From contig CAWDTG010000006.1 in assembly GCA_963805245.1 (NCBI GenBank), positions 560,799 to 624,798 of the forward strand: a stretch of 64,000 nucleotides of DNA, read 5' to 3'. The notes beneath the pieces are model-generated. The model was not told the DNA's origin. It saw only the letters and a list, made by a program, of their open reading frames with translations, and ran no database searches. The translations under genes and the position numbers were made by a program. Below, in pieces: positions 3,347-52,691 of this stretch; within the stretch, counting starts at the first letter, position 1; the number at the start of each line of letters is the position of its first letter. The stretch comes from an uncultured Acidobacteriaceae bacterium. Lineage in GTDB: Bacteria > Acidobacteriota > Terriglobia > Terriglobales > Acidobacteriaceae.

Positions 3347-4552
3347 TTACACGCGCTCCAGCACTAGCGCAATGCCCTGGCCGACGCCGATGCACATGGT
3401 GCACAGGGCGTAGTGCCCGCCGGTGCGTTGCAGTTGCAATACCGCAGTGGTGACTAACCGCGCTCCGCTGGCGCCCAGAGGATGGCCAATTGAAATTGCT
3501 CCGCCGTTCGGATTGACATGGGGGGCATCATCGGGAATGTCAAGGTCGCGAAGTACAGCGAGCGCCTGAGAGGCGAACGCCTCGTTCAATTCGATTACGT
3601 CCATATCCGCAATGTTGAGTTTGGCCAGAGCAAGCACCTTGCGTGTCGCCGGACCAGGTCCCATGCCCATGATGCGCGGTGCGACGCCCGCCGACGCCGA
3701 GGCGACCACGCGCGCTTTTGGTGTAAGACCGTAGCGGGTCACGGCCTGTTCCGACGCCAGCAGCAGCGCGCAGGCGCCATCGTTGACGCCCGAGGCGTTG
3801 CCGGCGGTGACGGTGCCATCTGGTTTCACGATTGGCTTCAGCGCCGCCAGCGCTTCGAGCGTTGTATCGGGACGAGGATGCTCGTCCTGGCTTACGACGA
3901 CGGGCACACCTTTGCGGCCAGAAATTGTGACCGGAACAATCTCTTCCGCGAGAGCTCCGCTCTTAATGGCAGCCGCTGTACGCTGCTGGCTGCGATAGGC
4001 AAAGGCGTCCTGGTCCTGTCGCGAGATATGGAATTCTTCCGCCACGTTCTCGGCAGTTTGCGGCATGGAGTCCACGCCATACTGGGCTTTCATCAGCGGA
4101 TTCACGAAGCGCCAGCCGATGGTGGTGTCTTCCAACTTCACGCCGCGGGAGAAAGCAACATCGGACTTTGCCATGACGAACGGCGCCCGCGACATGCTCT
4201 CCACGCCGCCAGCGATCACCAGGGAATTCTCTCCGGTCTTGATCGCCCTGGCGGCAACAGAAATGGCGTCCATGCTGGAGCCGCAGAGACGATTCACGGT
4301 TGAGCCAGGCACGGTTTGCAGAAGGCCAGCGAGCAACAGCGCCATGCGCGCGATGTTACGGTTATCCTCTCCGGCCTGATTCGTACAGCCCAGAATTACA
4401 TCGTCAACCGCGCTCCAATCCACGGAAGAGTTGCGCTCAACCAGGGCTTTGATCGGAATCACTGCTAGATCATCCGTACGGACAGAGGATAGCGATCCGC
4501 CATAGCGGCCGAAAGGCGTTCGGATGGCGTCGCAGATGAAGGCATTCGACAT
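3347..4552 (-). CDS. acetyl-CoA C-acyltransferase / 3-ketoacyl-CoA thiolase (PcaF/PaaJ-like)
   Basis: 401 aa with thiolase hallmarks: N-terminal ICDAIRTPFGRYGG, active-site region NRLCGSSMDA, C-terminal NPNGGAISIGHPLGASG and CIGVGQG. Confidence 0.92.
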   Translation of the reverse strand: MSNAFICDAIRTPFGRYGGSLSSVRTDDLAVIPIKALVERNSSVDWSAVDDVILGCTNQAGEDNRNIARMALLLAGLLQTVPGSTVNRLCGSSMDAISVAARAIKTGENSLVIAGGVESMSRAPFVMAKSDVAFSRGVKLEDTTIGWRFVNPLMKAQYGVDSMPQTAENVAEEFHISRQDQDAFAYRSQQRTAAAIKSGALAEEIVPVTISGRKGVPVVVSQDEHPRPDTTLEALAALKPIVKPDGTVTAGNASGVNDGACALLLASEQAVTRYGLTPKARVVASASAGVAPRIMGMGPGPATRKVLALAKLNIADMDVIELNEAFASQALAVLRDLDIPDDAPHVNPNGGAISIGHPLGASGARLVTTAVLQLQRTGGHYALCTMCIGVGQGIALVLERV

Positions 4553-4702: not shown

Positions 4703-5488
4703 CTACTTCAGCGTGTACAAGGCGTTCACATGAGCGGTAACTGTGATCTTCTGCGCTCCAAACTCTGCCGTGGGAGCGGGAGGAGCACCCATCGTTACTG
4801 CAGTTGCCTCTTTAGCGAAAACCATGGGGCGAATCGGGGTGGGCTCGTATGCGTCTACGGACGCATAAGACAGCTCGCCCAGGGTACGGCCGCCGAAGCG
4901 CGCGACCGCATTAGCCATGGCACGGGCACGCGGCAACGCATCTTCCACAGCTTTAACTTTGGCGGCCTCCATATCGTCGAGAAGATAGCTGAGAGATTGA
5001 TCCCCGGTCACGTCCGTCATGTTGGCGAGGCCCTCGGTAATCGGCCCCACTTTGGAGAAGTCCTTCAGCTTGATGCTGATGTTGGTGTCTACGCGATAGC
5101 CAACCAGCTTGCGCTTCGGGGTCTTGTAGTCATACACCGGCTGCACGGAGAACTGGCCGACCTGCGCGTCCTTGGGGTCGAGGCCGTTGGAGCGTAGCAG
5201 TTGCCGCACCTGCTCCGCCGCCCGACTGGCTTTCTGGTTCGCATCCTGCAGTTTGTCTTCCTGTGCCGAAATACTAAATTGCACCAGCACAGTGTCAGGC
5301 TCGGATTCGAACTTGCCGTCAGCTCCGACCCATACTGTATTGGGGATGGGAGTTATGGAGCGATCCTGCGCCATCAGCGGCGTCAGCCCGTAGAGTGAGC
5401 CGAGAAAAAACATGACTGCGAACGCGATGGACTGGCAATTTCTGAGTCCTATGTGGGTATCTGCCACGCACCTCTCCAGCGCCGACAC
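4703..5488 (-). CDS. SIMPL-domain (DUF541) periplasmic protein
   Basis: 261-aa ORF. The pattern VxxxGxxxxxPDxxxxxxxV ... and a C-terminal VTVTAHVNALYTLK resemble the 26-kDa periplasmic immunogenic protein family. Start codon uncertain (GTG 5488 or internal). Confidence 0.75.
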   Translation of the reverse strand: MSALERCVADTHIGLRNCQSIAFAVMFFLGSLYGLTPLMAQDRSITPIPNTVWVGADGKFESEPDTVLVQFSISAQEDKLQDANQKASRAAEQVRQLLRSNGLDPKDAQVGQFSVQPVYDYKTPKRKLVGYRVDTNISIKLKDFSKVGPITEGLANMTDVTGDQSLSYLLDDMEAAKVKAVEDALPRARAMANAVARFGGRTLGELSYASVDAYEPTPIRPMVFAKEATAVTMGAPPAPTAEFGAQKITVTAHVNALYTLK

Positions 5489-5776
5489 ATCGGCCGAAAG
5501 CCGCGGAGACGTGGCTCCTTTCCTTTGAAATCATAGTCCGGTGGAATAGCTTTGACCAAAGACGAAGCCACCGGACCTTTCCTTGGAAAGAACGTGGGAA
5601 ATTGCCAGCCTTGCACGAATTCCCGGTTAGGGAAGTGGTTGGGTGTTCTCGATTCCCAGAATCAAACTCGCCATGCACTTTCACGCCGAATGTGTCATCC
5701 AAATATTGAAAACGCGAATCTAAAAAGGTAAGTTGCTGATAGTTGTTAACGCCAAGGTCGGAGTAAGGAGCGGCCA

Positions 5777-20103: not shown

Positions 20104-20389
20104 AGGCTTGGGTAAAGCTGGCTTTTAGAGCATGTGTGACAACTTGGTCTGAGTTGGCGGAATGGGACGATTGCGCAAAGTCCAGCCCCAAAATGGGGCG
20201 GAAGAGCTTAGCCCAGCGCTTCAGCGCTGGGTACAGTGGGAAATGAGGCCGAGTCCCCTCAGGGACGGCAGAACAGCAATTCCCTCGACTCGGACTGAAG
20301 TCGTTGCTCGGGATGGCAGACGTTTGATAGTTTCCCACCCTTTCGCAAAAGCGGCGAAAGGATGGGGTACCCGAGAGTTCTTTGCAACA

Positions 20390-21586: not shown

Positions 21587-22177
21587 AGGAGCGGTTGTCA
21601 GTGACCAGTGGCCAGTTATCAGTTTCGACTAGACGGCGTGTCCACGATGTGTCTTTTGCGATTTAGTTTGGCCGATGCGCCATGAACTGTTCTTTGGAAT
21701 GTTTGCGCGACAGTGATCCAAGGGCCGCGAAACAAGTTGGAAGAGACGAACTGGTAGTGCGGCGCTTAGCGCCGCGTCGACGGTTCCAGGTAGATCGGGC
21801 TTTTAGCCCGGAAGGTAAACGCGGCATGAATGCCGCGGTTGTGACGATCTTTGCACTGACGATGATGCAGTCCCGCGGAGCGGGACGGGAAAGCTTAGCC
21901 CAGCGCGTGCCGGGGTCCCCAAGCCGCGCCGCCTTTGCGTGGATTGGGGTGGTTGAGCGCTGGGTAGGGAGGGAAGAACCTGAGTCCCGTAAGGACGGCA
22001 GAGTTTTTCGTGATTATAGGGGTCCTTCGACTCTGGCGCGCAAAGACGGCGCGCCTGCGCTCAGGATGACAGGCTTCATCTTCTGGAGAAGAGCGAAGGG
22101 CGAAAAGCGAATTGCGATTTCATTTATGGCTGACAGCTGATAGCTGACAGCTTGCTAGTTGCTAACGGCTAATTGCT
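21587..22177. repeat. nuoK-nuoL spacer made of stacked repeat modules
   Basis: Heptad tract 21597-21624, small hairpins at 21740-21840, family E at about 21895-21970, gtccc..ggacggcag hairpin at about 21983-22002, family A at 22016-22071 and heptad tract 22129-22177 abutting the nuoL ATG. Confidence 0.8.
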
Positions 22178-24307: not shown

Positions 24308-24495
24308 GGCCCACCCTGTCGCCAAAAGAGGGCGACAAGGATGGGGCACCCGCGCGAGTCGGGTCCCTCGGGGACGGCAGAAAAGCAGGTCCCTCGACTC
24401 GGACTGAAGTCCTCGCTCGGGATGACAAATTTACTTGTGGAACAGAAGTTTGAGCTGACGGCTAAAAGCTAACAGCTAAGGGCTAAGAGCCAAAA
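24308..24495. repeat. nuoL-nuoM spacer made of stacked repeat modules
   Basis: cccaccctgtcgcc..ggcgacaaggatgggg hairpin (24310-24354, related to 20334-20375), gtccctcggggacggcag hairpin, a family-A variant ending cgggatgaca, and heptad tract 24454-24495 (six GCTAAnn-type units) in exact register with the nuoM ATG. Confidence 0.8.
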
Positions 24496-26437: not shown

Positions 26438-27994
26438 GTGACCACCTCGCTGACAACCTTTTCTTTATCGTACTCGAGCACCGACTACCTGCTCGCCTTG
26501 CCGATGCTGCTGCTGACCGTGTTTGCGCTCGGCATCCTGATGATTGATTTAATGCTGCCGAAGCAGTGGAAGCGCATGAATGCGATTACGGCTTTGATCG
26601 GCATATCGTTTTCAGCCGCTGCCGTGGTCAAGCTTCACCTCGCCTACCACGCCGCCGAAAAGCAAGGCATCGCAATCGCGACCTTCACCGGCTTTATGGG
26701 CTCGCTGGTGGTCGATCGCTTCGCTATCTATTTCTTCTATCTCTTCCTGATCGGGGCGGCTGTCGCGATCCTGATGTCGATTCGTTATCTCGAAATCGAG
26801 CACGAAAACCATGGCGAGTTCTACGCGCTGCTCTTGCTCTCCGTCGTCGGGATGATGTGCATGGCCGCCGGCTATGACATCGTCCTGATCTTTATCGGGC
26901 TGGAGTTAATGGCCATCTCGACCTATGTTCTAGTGGGCTTCCTGCGGCGCGATAAGCGGTCGAACGAAGCCGCGCTGAAGTATTTGCTGCTCGGGGCGTT
27001 CTCATCGGGGATCTTTGCTTATGGACTGTCGCTGTTCTACGGCCTGACCGGCAGCACCAACCTGGGACAGATTGCACAGAAGCTACAGGAAGTGATCGCC
27101 ACCCGGCCGAACGATCCGGTGGTCATTTTTGCCCTGCTGGCAACCACGACAGGATTGTTGTTCAAGATCGCAGCCGTACCGTTTCACCAGTGGGCTCCCG
27201 ATGCCTATGAGGGCGCGCCCACCAGCATCACCGGCTTCATGTCGGTGGCAGTGAAATCCGCCGGATGGGCGATGCTGCTGCGCATCTTCCTCTTCGGACT
27301 TTACCCGCTGCGCTCGATGTATGTCCCGCTGCTGATCTTCGTTTCGATAGCGACCATGACCGGCGGCAACCTGGCAGCGATCACGCAGGACAATCTAAAG
27401 CGGCTGCTGGCGTACTCCTCCATCGCCCACGTCGGCTACATGCTGCTGGGCTTGATTGCCAGCGATGGGCAGACGAACTCTACCGGCATCATGGCGATCT
27501 TGATTTACCTGCTGGTGTACACCTTCATGAACCTGGGCGCCTTCGCGGTGATCACGTCGCTGCGGCGGCGCAACATCATCGGAGACACGGTCGATGACAT
27601 TGCGGGGTTGTACTTCAAGGCGCCGACCGAAGCCATCCTGATGTTGATCTTCCTGCTTTCACTGGCCGGAATTCCGCCACTGGCGGGCTTCTGGGGCAAG
27701 TATTTCATCTTCCTCAGCCTGATCCAGACAGGGCACTATTACCTGGCAGCCATCGGCGTGCTCTATTCGGTCGTCGGCCTCTATTACTACATGCGAATTG
27801 CCAACTCCATGCTCATGCGCCAACCCATCGATGCCGAACCTGTGCACACGCGACCCGCGATGCGGCTGGCGTTGACCGTCACCGCGGCTGGCACAGTGGT
27901 CATCGGTCTCTTCCCGAATGCCTTCATCAACGTTGCGAACTGGTCGCTGGGATTGGTGCAGGGCACGCAACACATGGCGGGAATGTTGCGGTAA
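26438..27994 (+). CDS. nuoN: NADH-quinone oxidoreductase subunit N
   Basis: 518-aa antiporter-like subunit (GTG start) with the motifs GLELMAISTYVLVGF and KIAAVPFHQWAPDAYEGAPT. Confidence 0.95.
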   Translation: MTTSLTTFSLSYSSTDYLLALPMLLLTVFALGILMIDLMLPKQWKRMNAITALIGISFSAAAVVKLHLAYHAAEKQGIAIATFTGFMGSLVVDRFAIYFFYLFLIGAAVAILMSIRYLEIEHENHGEFYALLLLSVVGMMCMAAGYDIVLIFIGLELMAISTYVLVGFLRRDKRSNEAALKYLLLGAFSSGIFAYGLSLFYGLTGSTNLGQIAQKLQEVIATRPNDPVVIFALLATTTGLLFKIAAVPFHQWAPDAYEGAPTSITGFMSVAVKSAGWAMLLRIFLFGLYPLRSMYVPLLIFVSIATMTGGNLAAITQDNLKRLLAYSSIAHVGYMLLGLIASDGQTNSTGIMAILIYLLVYTFMNLGAFAVITSLRRRNIIGDTVDDIAGLYFKAPTEAILMLIFLLSLAGIPPLAGFWGKYFIFLSLIQTGHYYLAAIGVLYSVVGLYYYMRIANSMLMRQPIDAEPVHTRPAMRLALTVTAAGTVVIGLFPNAFINVANWSLGLVQGTQHMAGMLR

Positions 27995-38419: not shown

Positions 38420-38432
38420 GGGAAGATCCTAA

Positions 38433-38500
38433 GTAGCAAGCAGCAATTCGCAACCAGCAATTAGCAATTGTCTCAGCAATTAGCCTTTGGTTCTTAGCAA
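38433..38500. repeat. heptad-periodic tract (TTAGCAA/CAGCAAT type) upstream of the M24 peptidase start
   Basis: AGCA recurs at 38435, 38442, 38456, 38463, then 38475, 38482 and 38496, giving a 7-nt period with one phase slip. Confidence 0.7.
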
Positions 38501-38654: not shown

Positions 38655-39047
38655 CTACTGCCTTTTCTTCTCCGGTTTGATTACGATGCCACGCGGCACG
38701 GGTACAAGCGCCCCGCGGCTGGGATCGGCGTGTTGGGCGCGAGCCATCACCTCGTTGCGCACATAGCTGACGAAGTCCGCCATCTGGCGCTGCATTTCGT
38801 CCATGCGCTCACGCATTTGCAGAATAATCGCGATACCCGAGATGTTTACCCCCAGGTCCCGCGCTAGTGACAGGATCAGCTCCAGACGCTCAATATCTTC
38901 GTCGGTGTAGAGGCGGGTGTTGCCTTCGGTGCGCGACGGCTTTAGCAGGCCTTCGCGCTCATACAGGCGCAACGTCTGCGGATGAATGCCATACATCTCC
39001 GCCACAGCGCTGATCATGTACGCGCCTTGCTTTTTACGCTTGGCCAT
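38655..39047 (-). CDS. hspR: MerR-family heat-shock repressor, HspR-like
   Basis: 130 aa with a MerR HTH (YMISAVAEMYGIHPQTLRLYEREGLLKPSRTEGNTRLY). Last gene of the dnaK-dnaJ cluster, as in actinobacterial dnaK operons. Confidence 0.75.
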   Translation of the reverse strand: MAKRKKQGAYMISAVAEMYGIHPQTLRLYEREGLLKPSRTEGNTRLYTDEDIERLELILSLARDLGVNISGIAIILQMRERMDEMQRQMADFVSYVRNEVMARAQHADPSRGALVPVPRGIVIKPEKKRQ

Positions 39048-39078
39048 AATCCTCTCGTTAGCTGGCAGCCATCGGCTA

Positions 39079-39669
39079 TCAGCTGTCAGCTAAGTCCTTG
39101 TTCACTGCTGCATCACGTTCGCTGTCTTTTATTGATGGCTGACGGCTCTGGGCTGAGGGCTTACATACTGCATACAGCAAGTGCGGCAGCCCAGAGTGCA
39201 TTACTTCCCGCTCAACTTGCATTCCGTTACGCTCGGCCACCCGCCGCGACGGCCCATTCTCCGGCCGGATAAGGGATACTACCTTCTCCGCCGCGAGATC
39301 GCGAAATGCATAATCCATACACGCCCGCGCTGCCTCGGTTGCATAACCATGCCCCCATTGATCGCGGCGTAGATGATAGCCCACCTCAAACTCTGGTCGG
39401 CCCTCGATTTGCTGGGTAGCCACTCCACAATCGCCAATTACTGCACGACTGACCTTGAGCACCATGGCATAGATCCCGTGTCCGTCGTCGGCGTAGCGGC
39501 GAAGATTGCGTTCGATCCATTCCTCGGCGTCTTTGCGATCATACGTTCGCGGATAATATTGCATCGCGATCGGATCACCAATCACCGCGTAGATCGCATC
39601 CACATCATCGCGACACAACCGGCGGAGGATGAGGCGTTCCGTTTCGAGGACAACATCAGCATTTAGCAC
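39079..39669 (-). CDS. GNAT-family N-acetyltransferase (RimJ/RimL-like)
   Basis: 196 aa (GTG start) with the pattern LETERLILRRL ... WGHGYATEAARA. Confidence 0.8.
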   Translation of the reverse strand: MLNADVVLETERLILRRLCRDDVDAIYAVIGDPIAMQYYPRTYDRKDAEEWIERNLRRYADDGHGIYAMVLKVSRAVIGDCGVATQQIEGRPEFEVGYHLRRDQWGHGYATEAARACMDYAFRDLAAEKVVSLIRPENGPSRRVAERNGMQVEREVMHSGLPHLLYAVCKPSAQSRQPSIKDSERDAAVNKDLADS

Positions 39670-39744
39670 TTGGCATTTGGCAGTTAGCGTTGATTACGAA
39701 CGTTGTTATTTTGCGAAACTCTCCAGAATCTGAAGATCGGAAAT

Positions 39745-39786
39745 GCTAATTGCTAATTGCTAATTGCTAATTGCTAATTGCTAAAC
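39745..39786. repeat. heptanucleotide tandem repeat (GCTAATT x5 plus GCTAAAC) overlapping the dnaJ stop codon
   Basis: Six in-phase units. The dnaJ TAG stop (complement of 39781-39783) lies in the last unit. Confidence 0.9.
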
Positions 39787-41022
39787 CTTCTTCCACAGCT
39801 CCTCCCTCGGGTCCTCTGGATTCAGCTTTGCCAGCTCGCGCAGGATTTCCTTCGAGCGTTCGTCGGTAATCTTCGGAGGCACCAGCTTGATCTCGACAAT
39901 CTCATCGCCACGTACGCCTTCCTTTACCGCCGAAGGCACACCTTTATCGCGCAGGCGGAGCTTCTGTCCCGATTGCGTGCCCGGCGGAATCTTCAACAGA
40001 GCCCGGCCGTCGATGGTCGGAACCTCGATCTTGGCGCCTAGTGCGGCTTCGGTGATGGTCGCCGGGATCGTGAGATAAATGTCGTCGCCCTCACGCTTGA
40101 ACACCGGATGCTCGCCTACGCGCACGATGATGTAGAGATCGCCCGCGGGGGCTCCCATGGTTCCGGCATTGCCGCGGCCTGGCAGGCGGATACGTTGTCC
40201 GTCGCGGGTCCCTGGTTTGATGCGGACCTTGAGCGTCTCACTTCGCTCGATGCGGCCTTCGCCGTGACATACCGGGCACACCGTACGATTCTTGCCGCTG
40301 CCGCCGCAGCGCGGGCAAACCACGTTGAACTTCATGCTGCCGGTTTTTTGCGTGATTTGTCCCTTGCCGTGGCACTCGGGGCATTGGCCCGGGCTTTCGA
40401 GGAAGCCCTGGCCGTGACAGTTGGTGCAGACCTCGCGGTGCGGAATCGTCAGCTGCATCTCTGTGCCCTTGATGGCCTGCCAGAAACCGACGTTCACCTG
40501 GTATTCCAAGTCCTCGCCTGGTTCGGGCCGCGATATGGGTGCTTCGCGTCCGCCTCCGAAGATGCCGGAAAAGATATCGCGGAATCCGCTGCCACCGGCT
40601 TTGCGCCCTGCCGCACCTGCGCCCTCAGCAAAGTCACTGAAGTCGAATCCGCCGAAGTCAATAGGAACTTCCTGGGTATAGGTACGCGTTCCGCCTCTGC
40701 CCGCGCCTGGCGGTGGTCCACCAAAACCACCTGCGCCAAAGCCCCCACCGCGCGCATAGGCTTCCGCTGTCGCCGCATCGATGTTGTCGGAGTAGAACCC
40801 GACCTGGTCGTAGATCTTGCGCTTCTTGGGATCGCTGAGGACGTCGTTGGCCTCGGAGAGCGTCTTGAACTTCTCCTCCGCAGACTTGTCACCAGGATTC
40901 ACGTCGGGGTGGTACTTGCGCGCCAACTTGCGAAACGCCTTGCGAATCTCCTCCGCCGAGGCAGTCTTCTTCACCCCGAGGATGCCGTAGTAGTCTTTGT
41001 TTTTGTTGGGCGTGGTTGGCAT
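39781..41022 (-). CDS. dnaJ: molecular chaperone DnaJ (type I)
   Basis: 413 aa with a J-domain (YHPDVNP), a G/F-rich region and four CxxCxGxG zinc-finger repeats. Confidence 0.95.
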
Positions 41023-41025
41023 TTG

Positions 41026-42303
41026 TTACGTTTTCAACACGACGTTCACGCTGCCGGTAAATGTCTTAGGGTAATCGCTCGCCAGAATCTCATAGCTCAG
41101 CGAAAATGATTTCAGGGCGCTCTCGCTATCAAAATGCACAAACAATGAAGGCAAATCCTCATACCGCTGGTGTTTAACGACAGGAACGCAGACCCGAATT
41201 GCTTGGGGATCGCCCTTACGAACGGCCACAATCCTGGCGCGAGACTTGAGATGACTCCAAACCCTATCTAAGTTTCGCAGTTCCAGTTTTCCGAAATCAG
41301 CTTGGAGGCCACGGGCGAGTTGTTGCGGCCGATTAGTCGGTATCAGCGGCGGTTCTGGTTTTGGGGTGAATTCTCGAAGTTCGTCCTTGCCGAGGACATC
41401 GAACCCACACGGGAACAGAATCTCGATTTCAACATCGGTCGCCGGCTTGACACGCAGCGCTAATTCCGGCGTCAATCTATGCCACTCATAAACCTCAATG
41501 CTGTTAGAAAGCCATGCCTGAATCTTCTCGAAGTACGCACACAACCTCTGGTTGTAAGCCTCTGACAATCTTGGGTCAATGTTGGCGAACCTCCATCCCT
41601 TCGGTGGTGCAGGATGAGGAGCCAAATAGGGGAGTTCCGCGCGCAGCCCCTCCATCGCACGCTCTATGAAGTCATTATCGAGATTCAAACGTTCTCTCAG
41701 GGTGAGAGTGCAGATACCATCATCGCCGATTGGCGCTAACGAAAGCTTCGGTGATGCTGCCTTCAAGACATGGAGCTCGGCCTGCAGGTCCCTGATCCGA
41801 CGGGTGTCCTCGTCCACTTGGTTAGGCAGACGCAGATTATCCGGCAGCCGTAACACGTGGATCTCTGTCCGTGCACGCGCCTTCAGCTCTAATCCCAGGT
41901 CTGCGGTCGCAACTGCGACCGAGTTACGGTCAAGAGAATTCTCAGCCGCAAACTCGACGGCGGCTGCTAATAGACGATCATCTGGTACATCTTGGCAGAG
42001 CCTATACAGTGCGAAGTTGATCAAAGGCTCTTGCGTTATAAATCGGATCTCCACCTGATCGCGGATATAGACGGGCGGAGATTGCCTGGAATAATCCGAA
42101 AGCAAGCGCAACGCTCCTGCCGCTCTTTCTCGCTGCTTAGACCGCGAAGAGGTATCCTTGTGCTTATTGAGTTCAGCAATTGTTATCAGTGGGACCAGGA
42201 GCACGATAGACGTGCAGTCCGCTAGCTTCAACCAGTCAACATTGGACATCGGCGGAAAATGTTCAAAGTAGTTTGTGTCCAAAAACAAGTACTTCTTGAC
42301 CAT
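41026..42303 (-). CDS. PIN-like nuclease domain protein with uncharacterised ~230-aa C-terminal region
   Basis: 425 aa with RBS gaagggtgg. The N-terminal ~150 aa show a PIN-type acidic pattern (LFLDTNYF, TIAELNKH, VPDDRLLAAA, ATADLG). About 52% GC versus about 65% in dnaJ (hand counts). Its stop lies 3 nt from the dnaJ start. Confidence 0.65.
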   Translation of the reverse strand: MVKKYLFLDTNYFEHFPPMSNVDWLKLADCTSIVLLVPLITIAELNKHKDTSSRSKQRERAAGALRLLSDYSRQSPPVYIRDQVEIRFITQEPLINFALYRLCQDVPDDRLLAAAVEFAAENSLDRNSVAVATADLGLELKARARTEIHVLRLPDNLRLPNQVDEDTRRIRDLQAELHVLKAASPKLSLAPIGDDGICTLTLRERLNLDNDFIERAMEGLRAELPYLAPHPAPPKGWRFANIDPRLSEAYNQRLCAYFEKIQAWLSNSIEVYEWHRLTPELALRVKPATDVEIEILFPCGFDVLGKDELREFTPKPEPPLIPTNRPQQLARGLQADFGKLELRNLDRVWSHLKSRARIVAVRKGDPQAIRVCVPVVKHQRYEDLPSLFVHFDSESALKSFSLSYEILASDYPKTFTGSVNVVLKT

Positions 42304-42321
42304 TCCACCCTTCCATACCGT

Positions 42322-42507
42322 TCAGTTGATACTAGCCTGTCCTCCGTCGCCCATAGGAATGACGGCGCGCGCGACAAAACCGAACTCATCGCTGATCACC
42401 GGGATCGCTTTCATCCGGCCGTCGACGCCGGCGGTTATCAAATACCACCGTCCGTCGTCGTTGTTAAAACTTAACATGTAGGATTGACCGTTTACTTCGA
42501 ATCGCAA
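42322..42507 (-). CDS. small hypothetical protein (61 aa) upstream of the PIN-like gene
   Basis: TTG start preceded by RBS gaagga. 18 nt upstream of the PIN-like ORF. No family recognised. Confidence 0.4.
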   Translation of the reverse strand: MRFEVNGQSYMLSFNNDDGRWYLITAGVDGRMKAIPVISDEFGFVARAVIPMGDGGQASIN

Positions 42508-42608
42508 ATTGTTCCTTCTAACCGGGGAGTTCGTTGGATTATTACTAGCTGTCAGCCATCAGCCGTCAGCTCTGGGCCAAACTCGCGCTTCCACGGCTAC
42601 CGCCCACC

Positions 42609-42643
42609 TAATGCGAAGGGGCGTTCATCACGCCCCCGCATTA
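42609..42643 (-). terminator. strong stem-loop downstream of dnaK (no U-tract)
   Basis: taatgcgaaggggcg / ttcatca / cgcccccgcatta. Flanked by heptad tracts at about 42545-42575 and 42633-42672. Confidence 0.3.
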
Positions 42644-42673
42644 GCTGATAGCTGACAGCCGAAAGCTGAGAGC

Positions 42674-44603
42674 TTATTTCTTCTCGTCCACGTCCACGTA
42701 CTCGGCGTCGATCACGCCTTCGTCTTTCTTCTTCTGCTCGCCGCCCGCGGTCTGACCATCTCCACCTGGAGCGGGTCCACCCGGCGGAGGCGTTTGCGCC
42801 GAAGTTGCTTTGTACATGGCTTCCGCCAGCTTGTGCGAAGCCGAAGTCAGGTTCTCGCGGGCTTTGTTCATCGCAGCCGCGTCGGTGCCCTCAAGCGCCT
42901 TCTTGGCATCCGCCAGCGCGTTCTCGACGTCGGCGCGCTCCTGCCCGGAGATCTTGTCTCCGTGCTCGCGCAGCATCTTCTCGATGCTGTACACCATGCC
43001 GTCGAGCTGGTTGCGGGCTTCCACTTCCTCGCGTTTGGTCTTGTCTTCGGCGGCGTGGGCATCGGCGTCCTTCGCCATGCGCTCGACCTCTTCCTTGCTT
43101 AGACCCGAAGACGACGTAATCGTTATCTTCTGGTCCTTACCGGTCGCCATGTCTTTCGCGTTGACGTTCAGAATGCCGTTGGCGTCGATGTCGAACGTCA
43201 CCTCGATCTGCGGCACGCCACGCGGAGCCGGAGGCAGTCCGGTTAGGTGGAACTTGCCCAGAGTGCGGTTGTCGCGCGCCATCGGACGTTCGCCTTGCAT
43301 CACGTGCACCTCAACCGACGTCTGGTTGTCGGCGGCGGTCGAGAACATCTCCGTTTTCTTGGTCGGAATGGTGGTGTTGCGCGGAATCATCTGCGTTGCC
43401 ACGCCGCCCATGGTTTCGATCGAGAGCGTCAGCGGAGTCACGTCGAGCAACAGCAGGTCTTTCACCTCGCCGCCGAGCACGCCACCTTGGATGGCCGCTC
43501 CGATCAGCCACCACCTCATCAGGGTTCACGCCCTTGTGCGGCTCCTTGCCAAAAAGCTCCTTCACCAGCTGCTGAATGCGCGGCATGCGCGTCTGTCCAC
43601 CGACCAGCACCACTTCGTTGATCTTGTCAGGAGTAACGCCGGCATCTTTCATCGCCTGCCTACACGGCCCGATGGAGCGATCGATGATGTCCTTCACCAT
43701 CTCTTCCAGCTTGGAGCGAGTCAGCTTCTTGACCAGGTGTTTGGGACCGCTCGCATCCGCCGTGATAAACGGCAGATTGATTTCGGTCTCCATGGTGGTC
43801 GAAAGTTCGATCTTGGCGCGCTCGGCCGCGTCGCGCAGACGTTGCAGCGCCATTTCGTTGCCCTTGTCGCGAAGGTTGAGGCCTTCGTCCTTCTTGAACT
43901 CGTCAATCAACCAGTCGACAATGCGCTGGTCGATGTTGTCGCCACCCAGGTGCGTGTCGCCATTGGTGGACTTCACTTCGATGACGCCTTCGCCGACTTC
44001 CAGAATCGAAATGTCGAAGGTGCCGCCGCCGAAGTCATACACCGCGATGGTTTCGTCCTTCTTCTTGTCGAGTCCGTAGGCCAGTGCAGCCGCCGTGGGC
44101 TCGTTGATGATGCGCTTAACGTCAAGACCGGCAATCTTGCCCGCGTCTTTGGTCGCTTGCCGCTGCGCGTCATTGAAGTACGCCGGAACCGTAATCACGG
44201 CGTCCGTCACAGTCTGTCCAAGGTAGTCCTCGGCAGACTTCTTCAGCTTCTGCAGAATCATGGCCGAGATCTGCGGCGGGGTATATTCCTTCCCCTGCGC
44301 GACGATGGCCACGTGATCGCCCGACTGCACGACCTTGTAAGGCACCATCTTCATTTCTTCATTGACTTCGTCGAAACGACGGCCCATGAAGCGCTTGATG
44401 GAGTAAATGGTGTTTTCTGGATTGGTGATGGCCTGGCGCTTTGCGACTTGGCCGACCAAGCGCTCGCCGTTCTTGGTGAATCCCACGACGGATGGCGTGG
44501 TCCGCCCGCCTTCTTCGTTTGGGATGACCTTGGGCTCGCCGCCTTCCATAACCGCGACCACGGAGTTCGTGGTACCCAAGTCAATTCCGATAATCTTTCC
44601 CAT
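42674..44603 (-). pseudogene. dnaK: molecular chaperone DnaK, reading frame broken by one extra base near 43505
   Basis: N-terminal ORF ([13 protein letters not shown]...NPDEVVA) and C-terminal ORF ([25 protein letters not shown]...). Deleting the top-strand C at 43505 gives the continuous sequence [13 protein letters not shown]. The second ATG (44603) is properly spaced from the aggagg RBS. Confidence 0.9.
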
Positions 44604-44643
44604 TGCAGCCATCCTCCTGGCTTAATTAGCTCGTAAGCTACTG

Positions 44644-44717
44644 ATAATAAATGCTATTTGTAACATGTCAAGTCTTATAACGAACCGAGTATAGAACTTG
44701 AGTGAATCACTGTCAAG
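44644..44717 (-). promoter_or_regulatory. dnaK promoter region with HAIR-like HspR operator
   Basis: Minus strand: CTTGACA-gtgattc-ACTCAAG (44697-44717) against the HAIR consensus CTTGAGT-N7-ACTCAAG. The same TTGACA lies 17 nt from TATACT (44688-44693). A second TTGACA-N16-TATTAT sits at 44644-44671. Confidence 0.6.
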
Positions 44718-52517: not shown

Positions 52518-52691
52518 CGATGAGCTGTCGGCCTTCAGCTAAGGCCCTAGGGCAAAGAGAGAAAGGCGAACGGCCAAAGACGTTACTTGCGGAAGTATAC
52601 GTCGCGCGAAAGCTGATAGCTGACGTGCTGATAGCCGACGGCTACCAGATGCTAGACTACTCATAACCTCTCCCTAGGGAACTTCTCAACC

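Follow-up and report, generated by a model that had tools for sequence, protein, structure and literature searches.

The window analysed here is a stretch of 64,000 nucleotides (nt) from an uncultured Acidobacteriaceae bacterium, and its minus strand carries a dnaK-dnaJ-hspR heat-shock operon in which a 61-amino-acid (aa) open reading frame (ORF) and a 425-aa ORF lie between dnaK and dnaJ. Family, predicted fold and set of acidic residues all assign the 425-aa protein to the PIN_4 (SMG6-like) nucleases, and comparison with related operons showed that its gene has long been established in this slot, under selection, in several lineages. The 61-aa ORF proved to be a conserved component of the Acidobacteriota (Terriglobales-type) dnaK-dnaJ-hspR operon, in which it usually occurs without the PIN gene. 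We favour, with moderate confidence, the interpretation that an accessory endoribonuclease was captured into a chaperone operon controlled by the repressor HspR and its operator, the HspR-associated inverted repeat (HAIR), and is made upon proteotoxic stress.

The 425-aa protein and the operon that carries it

The ORF list and Pfam matches placed the genes of the operon in the order dnaK, 61-aa ORF, 425-aa ORF, dnaJ, a GNAT acetyltransferase gene and hspR, with 1,651 nt between the stop codon of dnaK and the start of dnaJ. The features of the operon are as follows (AF2, AlphaFold2; Ig, immunoglobulin; REP, repetitive extragenic palindrome):

44688..44717, minus: dnaK promoter (TTGACA-17-TATACT), with a HAIR-like operator at 44697-44717 over the -35 hexamer
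44671..44644, minus: second promoter-like site
42674..44603, minus: dnaK (Hsp70), from the ORF list and alignment to the dnaK gene of the related locus L011
42547..42674, minus: compound hairpin, REP-like, from the dnaK stop codon (inverted-repeat search, folding energy)
42322..42507, minus: 61-aa small ORF, TTG start
41026..42303, minus: 425-aa ORF, ATG start, whole gene
41848..42303, minus: PIN_4 nuclease domain, residues 1-152 of the 425-aa protein (Pfam, AF2, Foldseek)
41464..41847, minus: helical linker, residues about 153-280 of the 425-aa protein (AF2 secondary structure)
41026..41463, minus: C-terminal Ig-like β-sandwich, residues about 281-425, plus stop codon (AF2, Foldseek)
39781..41022, minus: dnaJ (ORF list, Pfam)
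39079..39669, minus: GNAT acetyltransferase (Pfam)
38655..39047, minus: hspR, MerR-family heat-shock repressor (Pfam MerR_1, NF047375)

An earlier reading of this DNA (hereafter, the original prediction) had described the N-terminus of the 425-aa protein as PIN-like, and both profile searches and structure prediction supported this assignment. Residues 9-144 matched Pfam PIN_4 (PF13638) above its gathering score (29.4 vs 21.9 bits), and most homologues of the protein carry a precomputed match to the same family. An AF2 model built from 10 homologues (mean predicted local distance difference test score, pLDDT, of 80) showed a PIN α/β core at residues 1-152 (pLDDT 85-94), a linker with helices at 165-183, 210-223 and 244-276 and a short β-hairpin (pLDDT 66-89, with a dip at 229-238), and a β-sandwich at about residues 283-424. 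In Foldseek searches the N-terminus retrieved the PIN domain of SMG6 (E 2.5e-5, probability 1.0) and, also with probability 1.0, those of AF0591, Nmd4, Rrp44 and VapC5; the C-terminus retrieved Ig-like sandwiches, namely integrin thigh and calf domains, TTHA1873 and complement MG domains. When a profile of 150 family members was used as query, SMG6/EST1A was the only significant solved relative (E 1.4e-5). The 425-aa protein itself gave no match by sequence search of PDB chains, NCBIfam or PADLOC, and comparison of the PIN model with viral structures by Foldseek returned nothing informative.

Among the acidic residues originally proposed for the active site, D9, E44 and D135 were correctly placed and are invariant in the 10 nearest relatives; the pair given as D107/108 was off by one and corresponds to D108 and D109, which are likewise invariant. 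Across 150 family members D9 and D135 remained invariant, and E44, D108 and D109 were conserved in at least 90%. These sequence features suggest that the PIN_4 nuclease is probably active, and the analogy with PIN domains of the SMG6 and VapC type makes an endoribonuclease the most likely kind of endonuclease. In the C-terminal region H378, F391, Y404 and G417 are conserved too, and identity between orthologues is 28-62% in this part of the protein and 46-78% in the N-terminal part. The predicted Ig-like domain is a candidate module for specificity or partner binding.

The position between dnaK and dnaJ is normally occupied by grpE, which is why a GrpE-like role was considered for the helical and β-rich C-terminus. 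This candidate was rejected, as there was no GrpE match in Pfam, the folds matched were Ig-like, and nothing in the window resembled E. coli GrpE. The same comparison found no grpE in the operon, in the rest of the window or in the related loci fetched.

The original prediction of two same-strand ORFs between dnaK and dnaJ, each with its own ribosome-binding site, agrees with the sequence: GAAGGA lies 5 nt before the TTG start of the 61-aa ORF, and the purine-rich GGAAGGGTGG stands immediately 5' of the ATG of the 425-aa ORF. The stop of the first ORF and the start of the second are 18 nt apart on the same strand. At the other end, the stop TAA of the PIN gene is followed by CAA and then by the ATG of dnaJ, which is the 3-nt gap previously described. 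Inspection revealed no Shine-Dalgarno sequence for dnaJ, in either the PIN-carrying or the PIN-less configuration of the operon, and a motif scan predicted neither a sigma-70-like promoter nor an intrinsic terminator on the coding strand from dnaK to dnaJ.

The dnaK promoter at 44716..44688 matches a sigma-70-like consensus at 11/12 positions. The HAIR-like site over it, CTTGACA-N7-ACTCAAG, has 2 mismatches to the HAIR consensus CTTGAGT-N7-ACTCAAG (PMC6102357). By its number alone a single site of this kind has no significance, since 1.8 are expected at ≤3 mismatches; a HAIR-like motif was also found 95-119 nt upstream of dnaK in 9/10 related loci. The MerR-type gene at the end of the operon scored 106.2 bits against the NCBIfam equivalog NF047375 HeatShock_HspR (cut-off 105). 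With a repressor gene and a HAIR inverted repeat at the promoter both present, the operon is, as judged from its sequence, of the HspR/HAIR type, in agreement with the HspR-type operon and promoter-overlapping operator originally proposed.

The low guanine-plus-cytosine (GC) content noted for the large gene (52%) was confirmed; the 65% given for dnaJ was too high. The 425-aa gene has a GC of 0.520, below every sample taken over the whole 64 kb in 1,278-nt sliding windows with 50-nt steps (lowest 0.522, median 0.576), and dnaJ has 0.61 overall and about 0.63 locally. At third codon positions (GC3) the value was 0.58 for the 425-aa gene vs 0.73 to 0.79 in dnaJ and dnaK. The PIN orthologues lie below the flanking dnaK and dnaJ genes in both GC and GC3 at every locus examined, a contrast that is expected in part, since codon bias is strong in chaperone genes.

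The ratio of nonsynonymous to synonymous substitution rates (dN/dS) of the PIN gene was 0.136 at an unsaturated dS of 0.17 between loci L006 and L009 and about 0.14 between L001 and L009, and these two comparisons, based on sequence divergence, indicate purifying selection. Since dS was saturated between the window and L007/L008, the estimate applies outside the window's own PIN subclade. The homologues are full-length and under selection, not the fragmentary, unconserved ORFs that would have spoken against a functional gene. For the small ORF, dN/dS was 0.05-0.12.

The small ORF and the PIN slot in related operons

The small-ORF family comprised at least 95 clusters at 90% identity, vs 10 matches in a word-indexed protein search for the PIN gene, with sources of the small ORF in Terriglobales, 'Ca. 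Korobacteraceae', Bryocella and other Acidobacteriota metagenome-assembled genomes. Residues L12, W21, Y22, T25 and V37 are invariant in the family. Structure prediction gave a β-meander of four strands and a disordered tail (pLDDT 75), for which Foldseek returned no significant structural match; the small ORF matched nothing in Pfam, NCBIfam or PADLOC, and no DNA-binding or antitoxin-like domain was found in it.

The loci fetched through the small ORF (L011 to L015, L017 and L018) have the order dnaK, small ORF, dnaJ, GNAT gene in some, and hspR, with no PIN gene. L011 and L012 are the closest relatives of the window, with 88% identity in DnaJ and 90% in the small ORF by tblastn, and they too lack the PIN gene. 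In every locus retrieved in this way the small ORF lies just 3' of dnaK, and it is followed by dnaJ wherever dnaJ could be seen on the contig, except in L016, where nothing dnaJ-like follows. A tblastn search found no PIN remnant in the PIN-less loci, a result that fits loss and absence of gain alike. The small ORF follows the divergence of DnaK and DnaJ between loci; the PIN gene does not. Altogether, these data show that the small ORF is independent of the PIN gene and is not a partner of the nuclease, and the two-gene cassette originally proposed does not hold. The 61-aa protein, which belongs to an uncharacterised family, is instead a candidate new component of the chaperone operon.

One 90%-identity cluster that includes the 61-aa ORF also holds full-length DnaJ proteins. 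This is presumably a database artefact, chained through gene calls on some contigs in which the small ORF and DnaJ are fused.

A survey of the dnaK-dnaJ spacer located the PIN gene directly 5' of dnaJ in nine loci, namely the window, L001, L002, L006, L007, L008, L009, L093 and a Joint Genome Institute (JGI) contig, with dnaK present on the sequence in the window, L001, L008, L009 and L093. The PIN homologues at these dnaJ-adjoining loci are 35-64% identical, and they keep the same slot even in hosts with only about 70% identity in DnaJ. In all nine the PIN gene is immediately preceded by the small ORF, of which the L006 contig includes the last 17 codons only; on the JGI contig, known from gene calls, a 60-aa ORF called at this place is its putative counterpart. 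Among PIN-carrying loci the stop of the small ORF and the start of the PIN gene are 15-26 nt apart. The stop of the PIN gene is 0-3 nt from the ATG of dnaJ in seven loci and 10 nt from it in L093. The PIN orthologue of L008 is frameshifted, in the same way as dnaK of the window.

In the PIN-less loci the spacer between the small ORF and dnaJ consists of 180-250 nt of REP-like sequence, extended to 780 nt in L013, L014 and L015. In these three loci the slot is taken by an unrelated 133-aa gene (5234-5635) that matched nothing in Pfam or NCBIfam. L093 carries, between dnaK and the small ORF (3631-4519), a GIY-YIG nuclease gene of 108 aa, flanked by two copies of a repeated element, and a 102-aa ORF. 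As these genes in L013 to L015 and L093 show, the spacers of the operon collect small accessory genes.

The histories of the PIN gene and of its flanks differ most clearly between L009 and L093, where identity is 95.5% in DnaK, 81% in the small ORF and 92.5% in DnaJ vs 42% in the PIN protein, and where dS is 0.70 for dnaJ vs about 2.5 for the PIN gene. The L009 PIN protein is closer to that of L001, though the DnaJ of L001 is more distant. At least one replacement of a PIN allele is evident from these sequence comparisons and, since the small ORF stays with its host in them, the exchanged unit is the PIN gene alone. In a neighbour-joining tree of 227 family members the dnaK-linked PIN proteins fell in one clade of 15, and over 100 bootstraps only two of 77 sequences known not to be linked to dnaK ever intruded: L091, which adjoins genes for a HicB antitoxin and an extracytoplasmic function (ECF) sigma factor, and L092. 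The gene is both a resident, selected and in a conserved slot, and an accessory visitor, patchy and swapped. The foreign origin originally suggested is in keeping with the atypical GC at every locus and with the allele replacement, but the gene is an old resident rather than a recent, one-off insertion.

The wider family and other elements of the window

The word-indexed search, with its 10 matches, had made the PIN family appear tiny; an exhaustive profile search corrected this to thousands, with 5,236 representatives of 50%-identity clusters at E<1e-3 and 1,669 at E<1e-30. Among the 150 best matches listed, nearly all are 425-460 aa long and aligned over their full length. They bear in databases only the names 'PIN domain-containing protein', 'FCF1-like' or 'hypothetical protein'.

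The neighbourhoods of the family were examined in 80 metagenomic loci obtained by scanning with a 9-sequence sub-alignment, a sample biased to the part of the family not linked to dnaK. Only one of them, L093, has dnaK and dnaJ, and no recurrent neighbour or conserved upstream partner was found among the 80. In two loci (L067, 759-9507; L053, 17-6609) the family gene lies between brxC and pglXI of a type-3 bacteriophage exclusion (BREX) system, with brxF upstream in L067 and the PDC-M23A candidate defence gene following in L053. The most frequent domains among 147 neighbouring proteins, counted without a control set, were N6_N4_Mtase (5), SLFN_AlbA_2 (3), DUF6079/BrxC (2) and Eco57I (2). Of the more distant relatives, L003 and L004 adjoin Schlafen/AlbA_2 genes, and the genes around L010 mostly have no Pfam match. 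One widespread member (L101/L102) adjoins an IS3 transposase, Uma2 and VapBC pairs. Other members lie among ordinary genes. PADLOC had no model that matched the BREX-embedded relative of L067 either. A scan of viral contigs yielded only 2 weak relatives, so the family is not typically phage-borne. The overall profile is that of a solo accessory or conflict-type gene, often in mobile or defence-type contexts.

Other members of the operon in the window deserve a brief description. The dnaK gene appears as two overlapping ORFs (44612..43311 and 43519..42674) because one extra nt stands near 43506 when the gene is aligned with dnaK of L011 (90% nt identity, single indel), and from this alignment the frameshift is probably an assembly error of the long-read kind rather than the mark of a pseudogene. 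The GNAT gene is a variable member, present in L011 and L012 and absent in L013 and L017. Rfam matched no known RNA in the operon.

The compound hairpin that adjoins dnaK spans 125 nt and has a folding energy of -83.7 kcal/mol (z = -6.3) and no U-tract; it may serve as an mRNA stabiliser or as an attenuator for the downstream genes. It belongs to a dispersed REP-like element made of 7-nt periodic units (AGCTGTC / AGCCATC / AGCCGTC), which forms long hairpins in intergenic spacers and has no Rfam match. The motif has 13 hits in the window, where 1.2 would arise by chance. Of its copies, which lie at six or more places, one adjoins dnaK and one stands between the GNAT gene and hspR; they include the following:

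42547-42674: REP-like element copy
39060-39161: REP-like element copy
22122-22151: REP-like element copy
24454-24469: REP-like element copy
27742-27757: REP-like element copy
52524-52642: REP-like element copy

Two further repeats bracket the GNAT-hspR pair, a tandem array of the heptamer AATTGCT in the spacer between dnaJ and the GNAT gene (39741-39789) and an inverted, degenerate heptamer array just 3' of hspR (38431-38500). Elsewhere in the window, at 20184-20231 on the minus strand, an Acido-Lenti-1 RNA (RF01687) was detected with 47.6 bits (gathering score, 37), which fits an acidobacterial origin of the contig.

Possible roles and comparison with known systems

According to the interpretation that we favour, some Acidobacteriota would have captured a gene from one branch of the PIN family into the dnaK operon repressed by HspR, at the site between the small ORF and dnaJ. 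The gene would be transcribed from the HAIR-controlled dnaK promoter, and its product would be made mainly when a load of unfolded protein, from heat or from any event that titrates DnaK, lifts repression by HspR. Ribosomes that end translation of the PIN ORF may reinitiate at the dnaJ ATG 0-3 nt further on, in which case the synthesis of DnaJ would be coupled to that of the nuclease and clean loss of the PIN gene would therefore be costly. Under proteotoxic stress the nuclease would cut RNA, and so slow translation, clear damaged RNA or abort an infection, with the Ig-like domain setting the specificity for target or partner.

Several points weigh against this interpretation. We infer both co-transcription and coupling from spacing alone; the very stable hairpin that follows dnaK (-83.7 kcal/mol) might be a site of transcript termination or processing, and the PIN gene may have an unconventional promoter. 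The lack of a PADLOC defence match for the window protein and a neighbourhood of housekeeping type, not a defence island, do not point to a conflict-type gene either, and several family members lie among ordinary metabolic genes; the defence-type census of the wider family, made without a control set, is no more than suggestive. Bootstrap support for the dnaK-linked set was weak, the 15 members being strictly monophyletic in 14/100 bootstraps and free of intruders in 43/100. Finally, a dedicated heat-shock role would account just as well for the long persistence of the gene under purifying selection.

That role is the core of the main rival explanation, in which the PIN protein is a heat-shock RNase integrated in the chaperone regulon, for instance in ribosome or RNA quality control, and not an accessory or conflict gene. 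Analogues would be, in E. coli, the endoribonuclease YbeY, a heat-shock protein, and the PhoH-like protein encoded next to it, as well as the PIN_4-PhoH2 proteins. A dedicated role would explain the conserved position next to dnaJ where DnaJ is only 70% identical, the dN/dS of about 0.14, the intact catalytic residues, the HspR/HAIR-controlled setting and the annotation of some family members by JGI as FCF1-like rRNA-processing proteins. It does not explain that the closest relatives keep the operon without the PIN gene, that one allele was replaced independently of its flanks, that the composition of the gene is persistently atypical and its C-terminal domain fast-evolving, or that other family members are scattered over unrelated contexts, often mobile or defence-type, and we regard it as unlikely. 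The patchy presence and the swapping of alleles between near-identical flanks would instead suit a purely selfish hitch-hiker of no benefit to the host, whose alleles would be carried between genomes by homologous recombination in the highly conserved dnaK and dnaJ genes on either side and which would be retained since deletions would be polar on a dnaJ without its own ribosome-binding site. The gap of 0-3 nt, the absence of a visible Shine-Dalgarno sequence for dnaJ and the other small genes in the same spacers (the 133-aa gene of L013 to L015; the GIY-YIG gene and 102-aa ORF of L093) are in line with such a passenger. However, purifying selection on the catalytic residues and on the full length would not be expected of a functionless gene, and PIN-less operons evidently express dnaJ from a long spacer, which makes loss of the PIN gene feasible; a passenger of this kind seems improbable to us.

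A VapBC-like type II toxin-antitoxin pair, with the 61-aa protein as antitoxin and the 425-aa PIN protein as toxin, was among the functions originally suggested, and the small ORF does lie 18 nt upstream on the same strand and is present at every dnaK-linked PIN locus with upstream sequence. This option is largely refuted and very unlikely. The distribution of the small ORF is much wider than that of the PIN gene; in PIN-less operons the small ORF is under strong purifying selection, and its divergence, unlike that of the PIN gene, follows the host phylogeny. Its product has no structural match and no DNA-binding or antitoxin domain (AbrB, ribbon-helix-helix, PhD or helix-turn-helix), and no conserved partner lies upstream of the PIN gene in the wider family. 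VapC toxins are compact, single-domain proteins of about 130-150 aa, and the 425-aa protein, with three regions, is about three times that size. A non-functional ORF, pseudogene or assembly artefact could be imagined on a contig with at least one frameshift, in dnaK, and with the L008 orthologue frameshifted too. This idea is refuted by conservation and has next to no probability left, given an ORF intact at 425 aa, full-length homologues, invariant catalytic residues and a dN/dS of 0.14.

A bolder proposal would make the PIN protein a conflict effector with no sensor of its own, an abortive-infection or stress-suicide nuclease that borrows the chaperone-titration circuit. Unfolded or foreign protein, such as phage capsid, would titrate DnaK, HspR would leave the HAIR operator, and nuclease and chaperones would be switched on together; an arms race would then account for the exchange of alleles and the rapid evolution of the Ig-like domain, and the 61-aa protein would be a new cofactor of DnaK and DnaJ. 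We hold this proposal to be speculative and give it a low probability.

What is new here is the unreported and evolutionarily maintained combination of a known enzyme class with a known regulon. Neither PIN nucleases nor HspR operons are a novelty in themselves. For a nuclease gene lodged between the two chaperone genes, by contrast, full-text literature searches gave no precedent: in accordance with the original prediction that the arrangement was undescribed, they turned up no description of a PIN gene in the dnaK-dnaJ interval, of the small ORF or of the PIN plus Ig-like family. If the wiring is functional, it would link RNA cleavage directly to the unfolded-protein signal and offer a testable case of a conflict-type gene switched by a core stress regulon or, alternatively, of a gene that secures its own retention through translational coupling to a chaperone gene. 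The analysis also brings out two uncharacterised families, the PIN_4 plus Ig-like proteins, with more than 1,600 clusters at 50% identity, and the small protein of the Acidobacteriota dnaK-dnaJ operon.

Among known systems, the operon is closest in layout to those of Streptomyces and Mycobacterium, where HspR and HAIR control dnaK-grpE-dnaJ-hspR operons. It shares with them dnaK in first and hspR in last place and a HAIR-like repeat over the promoter; it differs in having the small ORF, plus the PIN gene in some lineages, in place of grpE, and a GNAT gene between dnaJ and hspR. By size and position only, the 61-aa ORF may be compared with two small proteins of dnaK- or dnaJ-type operons that are each conserved in a single lineage, DafA of Thermus thermophilus, which assembles the DnaK3-DnaJ3-DafA3 complex (PMC3727329), and CbpM of E. 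coli, which binds the J-domain of CbpA (PMC8215388).

The 425-aa protein resembles the PIN_4 nucleases of the SMG6/EST1A type in its Pfam family, in its closest solved structure by both profile and fold, and in its acidic set, and departs from them in its bacterial architecture of 425-450 aa, where a helical linker precedes an Ig-like β-sandwich. The PhoH ATPase of PhoH2 is missing, as are 14-3-3 and TPR parts, and the family has no characterised member. With VapBC it has in common that a small ORF immediately precedes the gene of a PIN nuclease, and VapC5 is among the fold matches; here, however, the upstream ORF is not of antitoxin type and is inherited independently, and the PIN gene lies inside a chaperone operon instead of an autoregulated two-gene operon. 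Distant relatives of the PIN gene do occur inside type-3 BREX operons, and others lie beside Schlafen/AlbA_2, restriction-modification or toxin-antitoxin genes, whereas the PIN gene of the window, for which PADLOC has no match, sits in a housekeeping operon.

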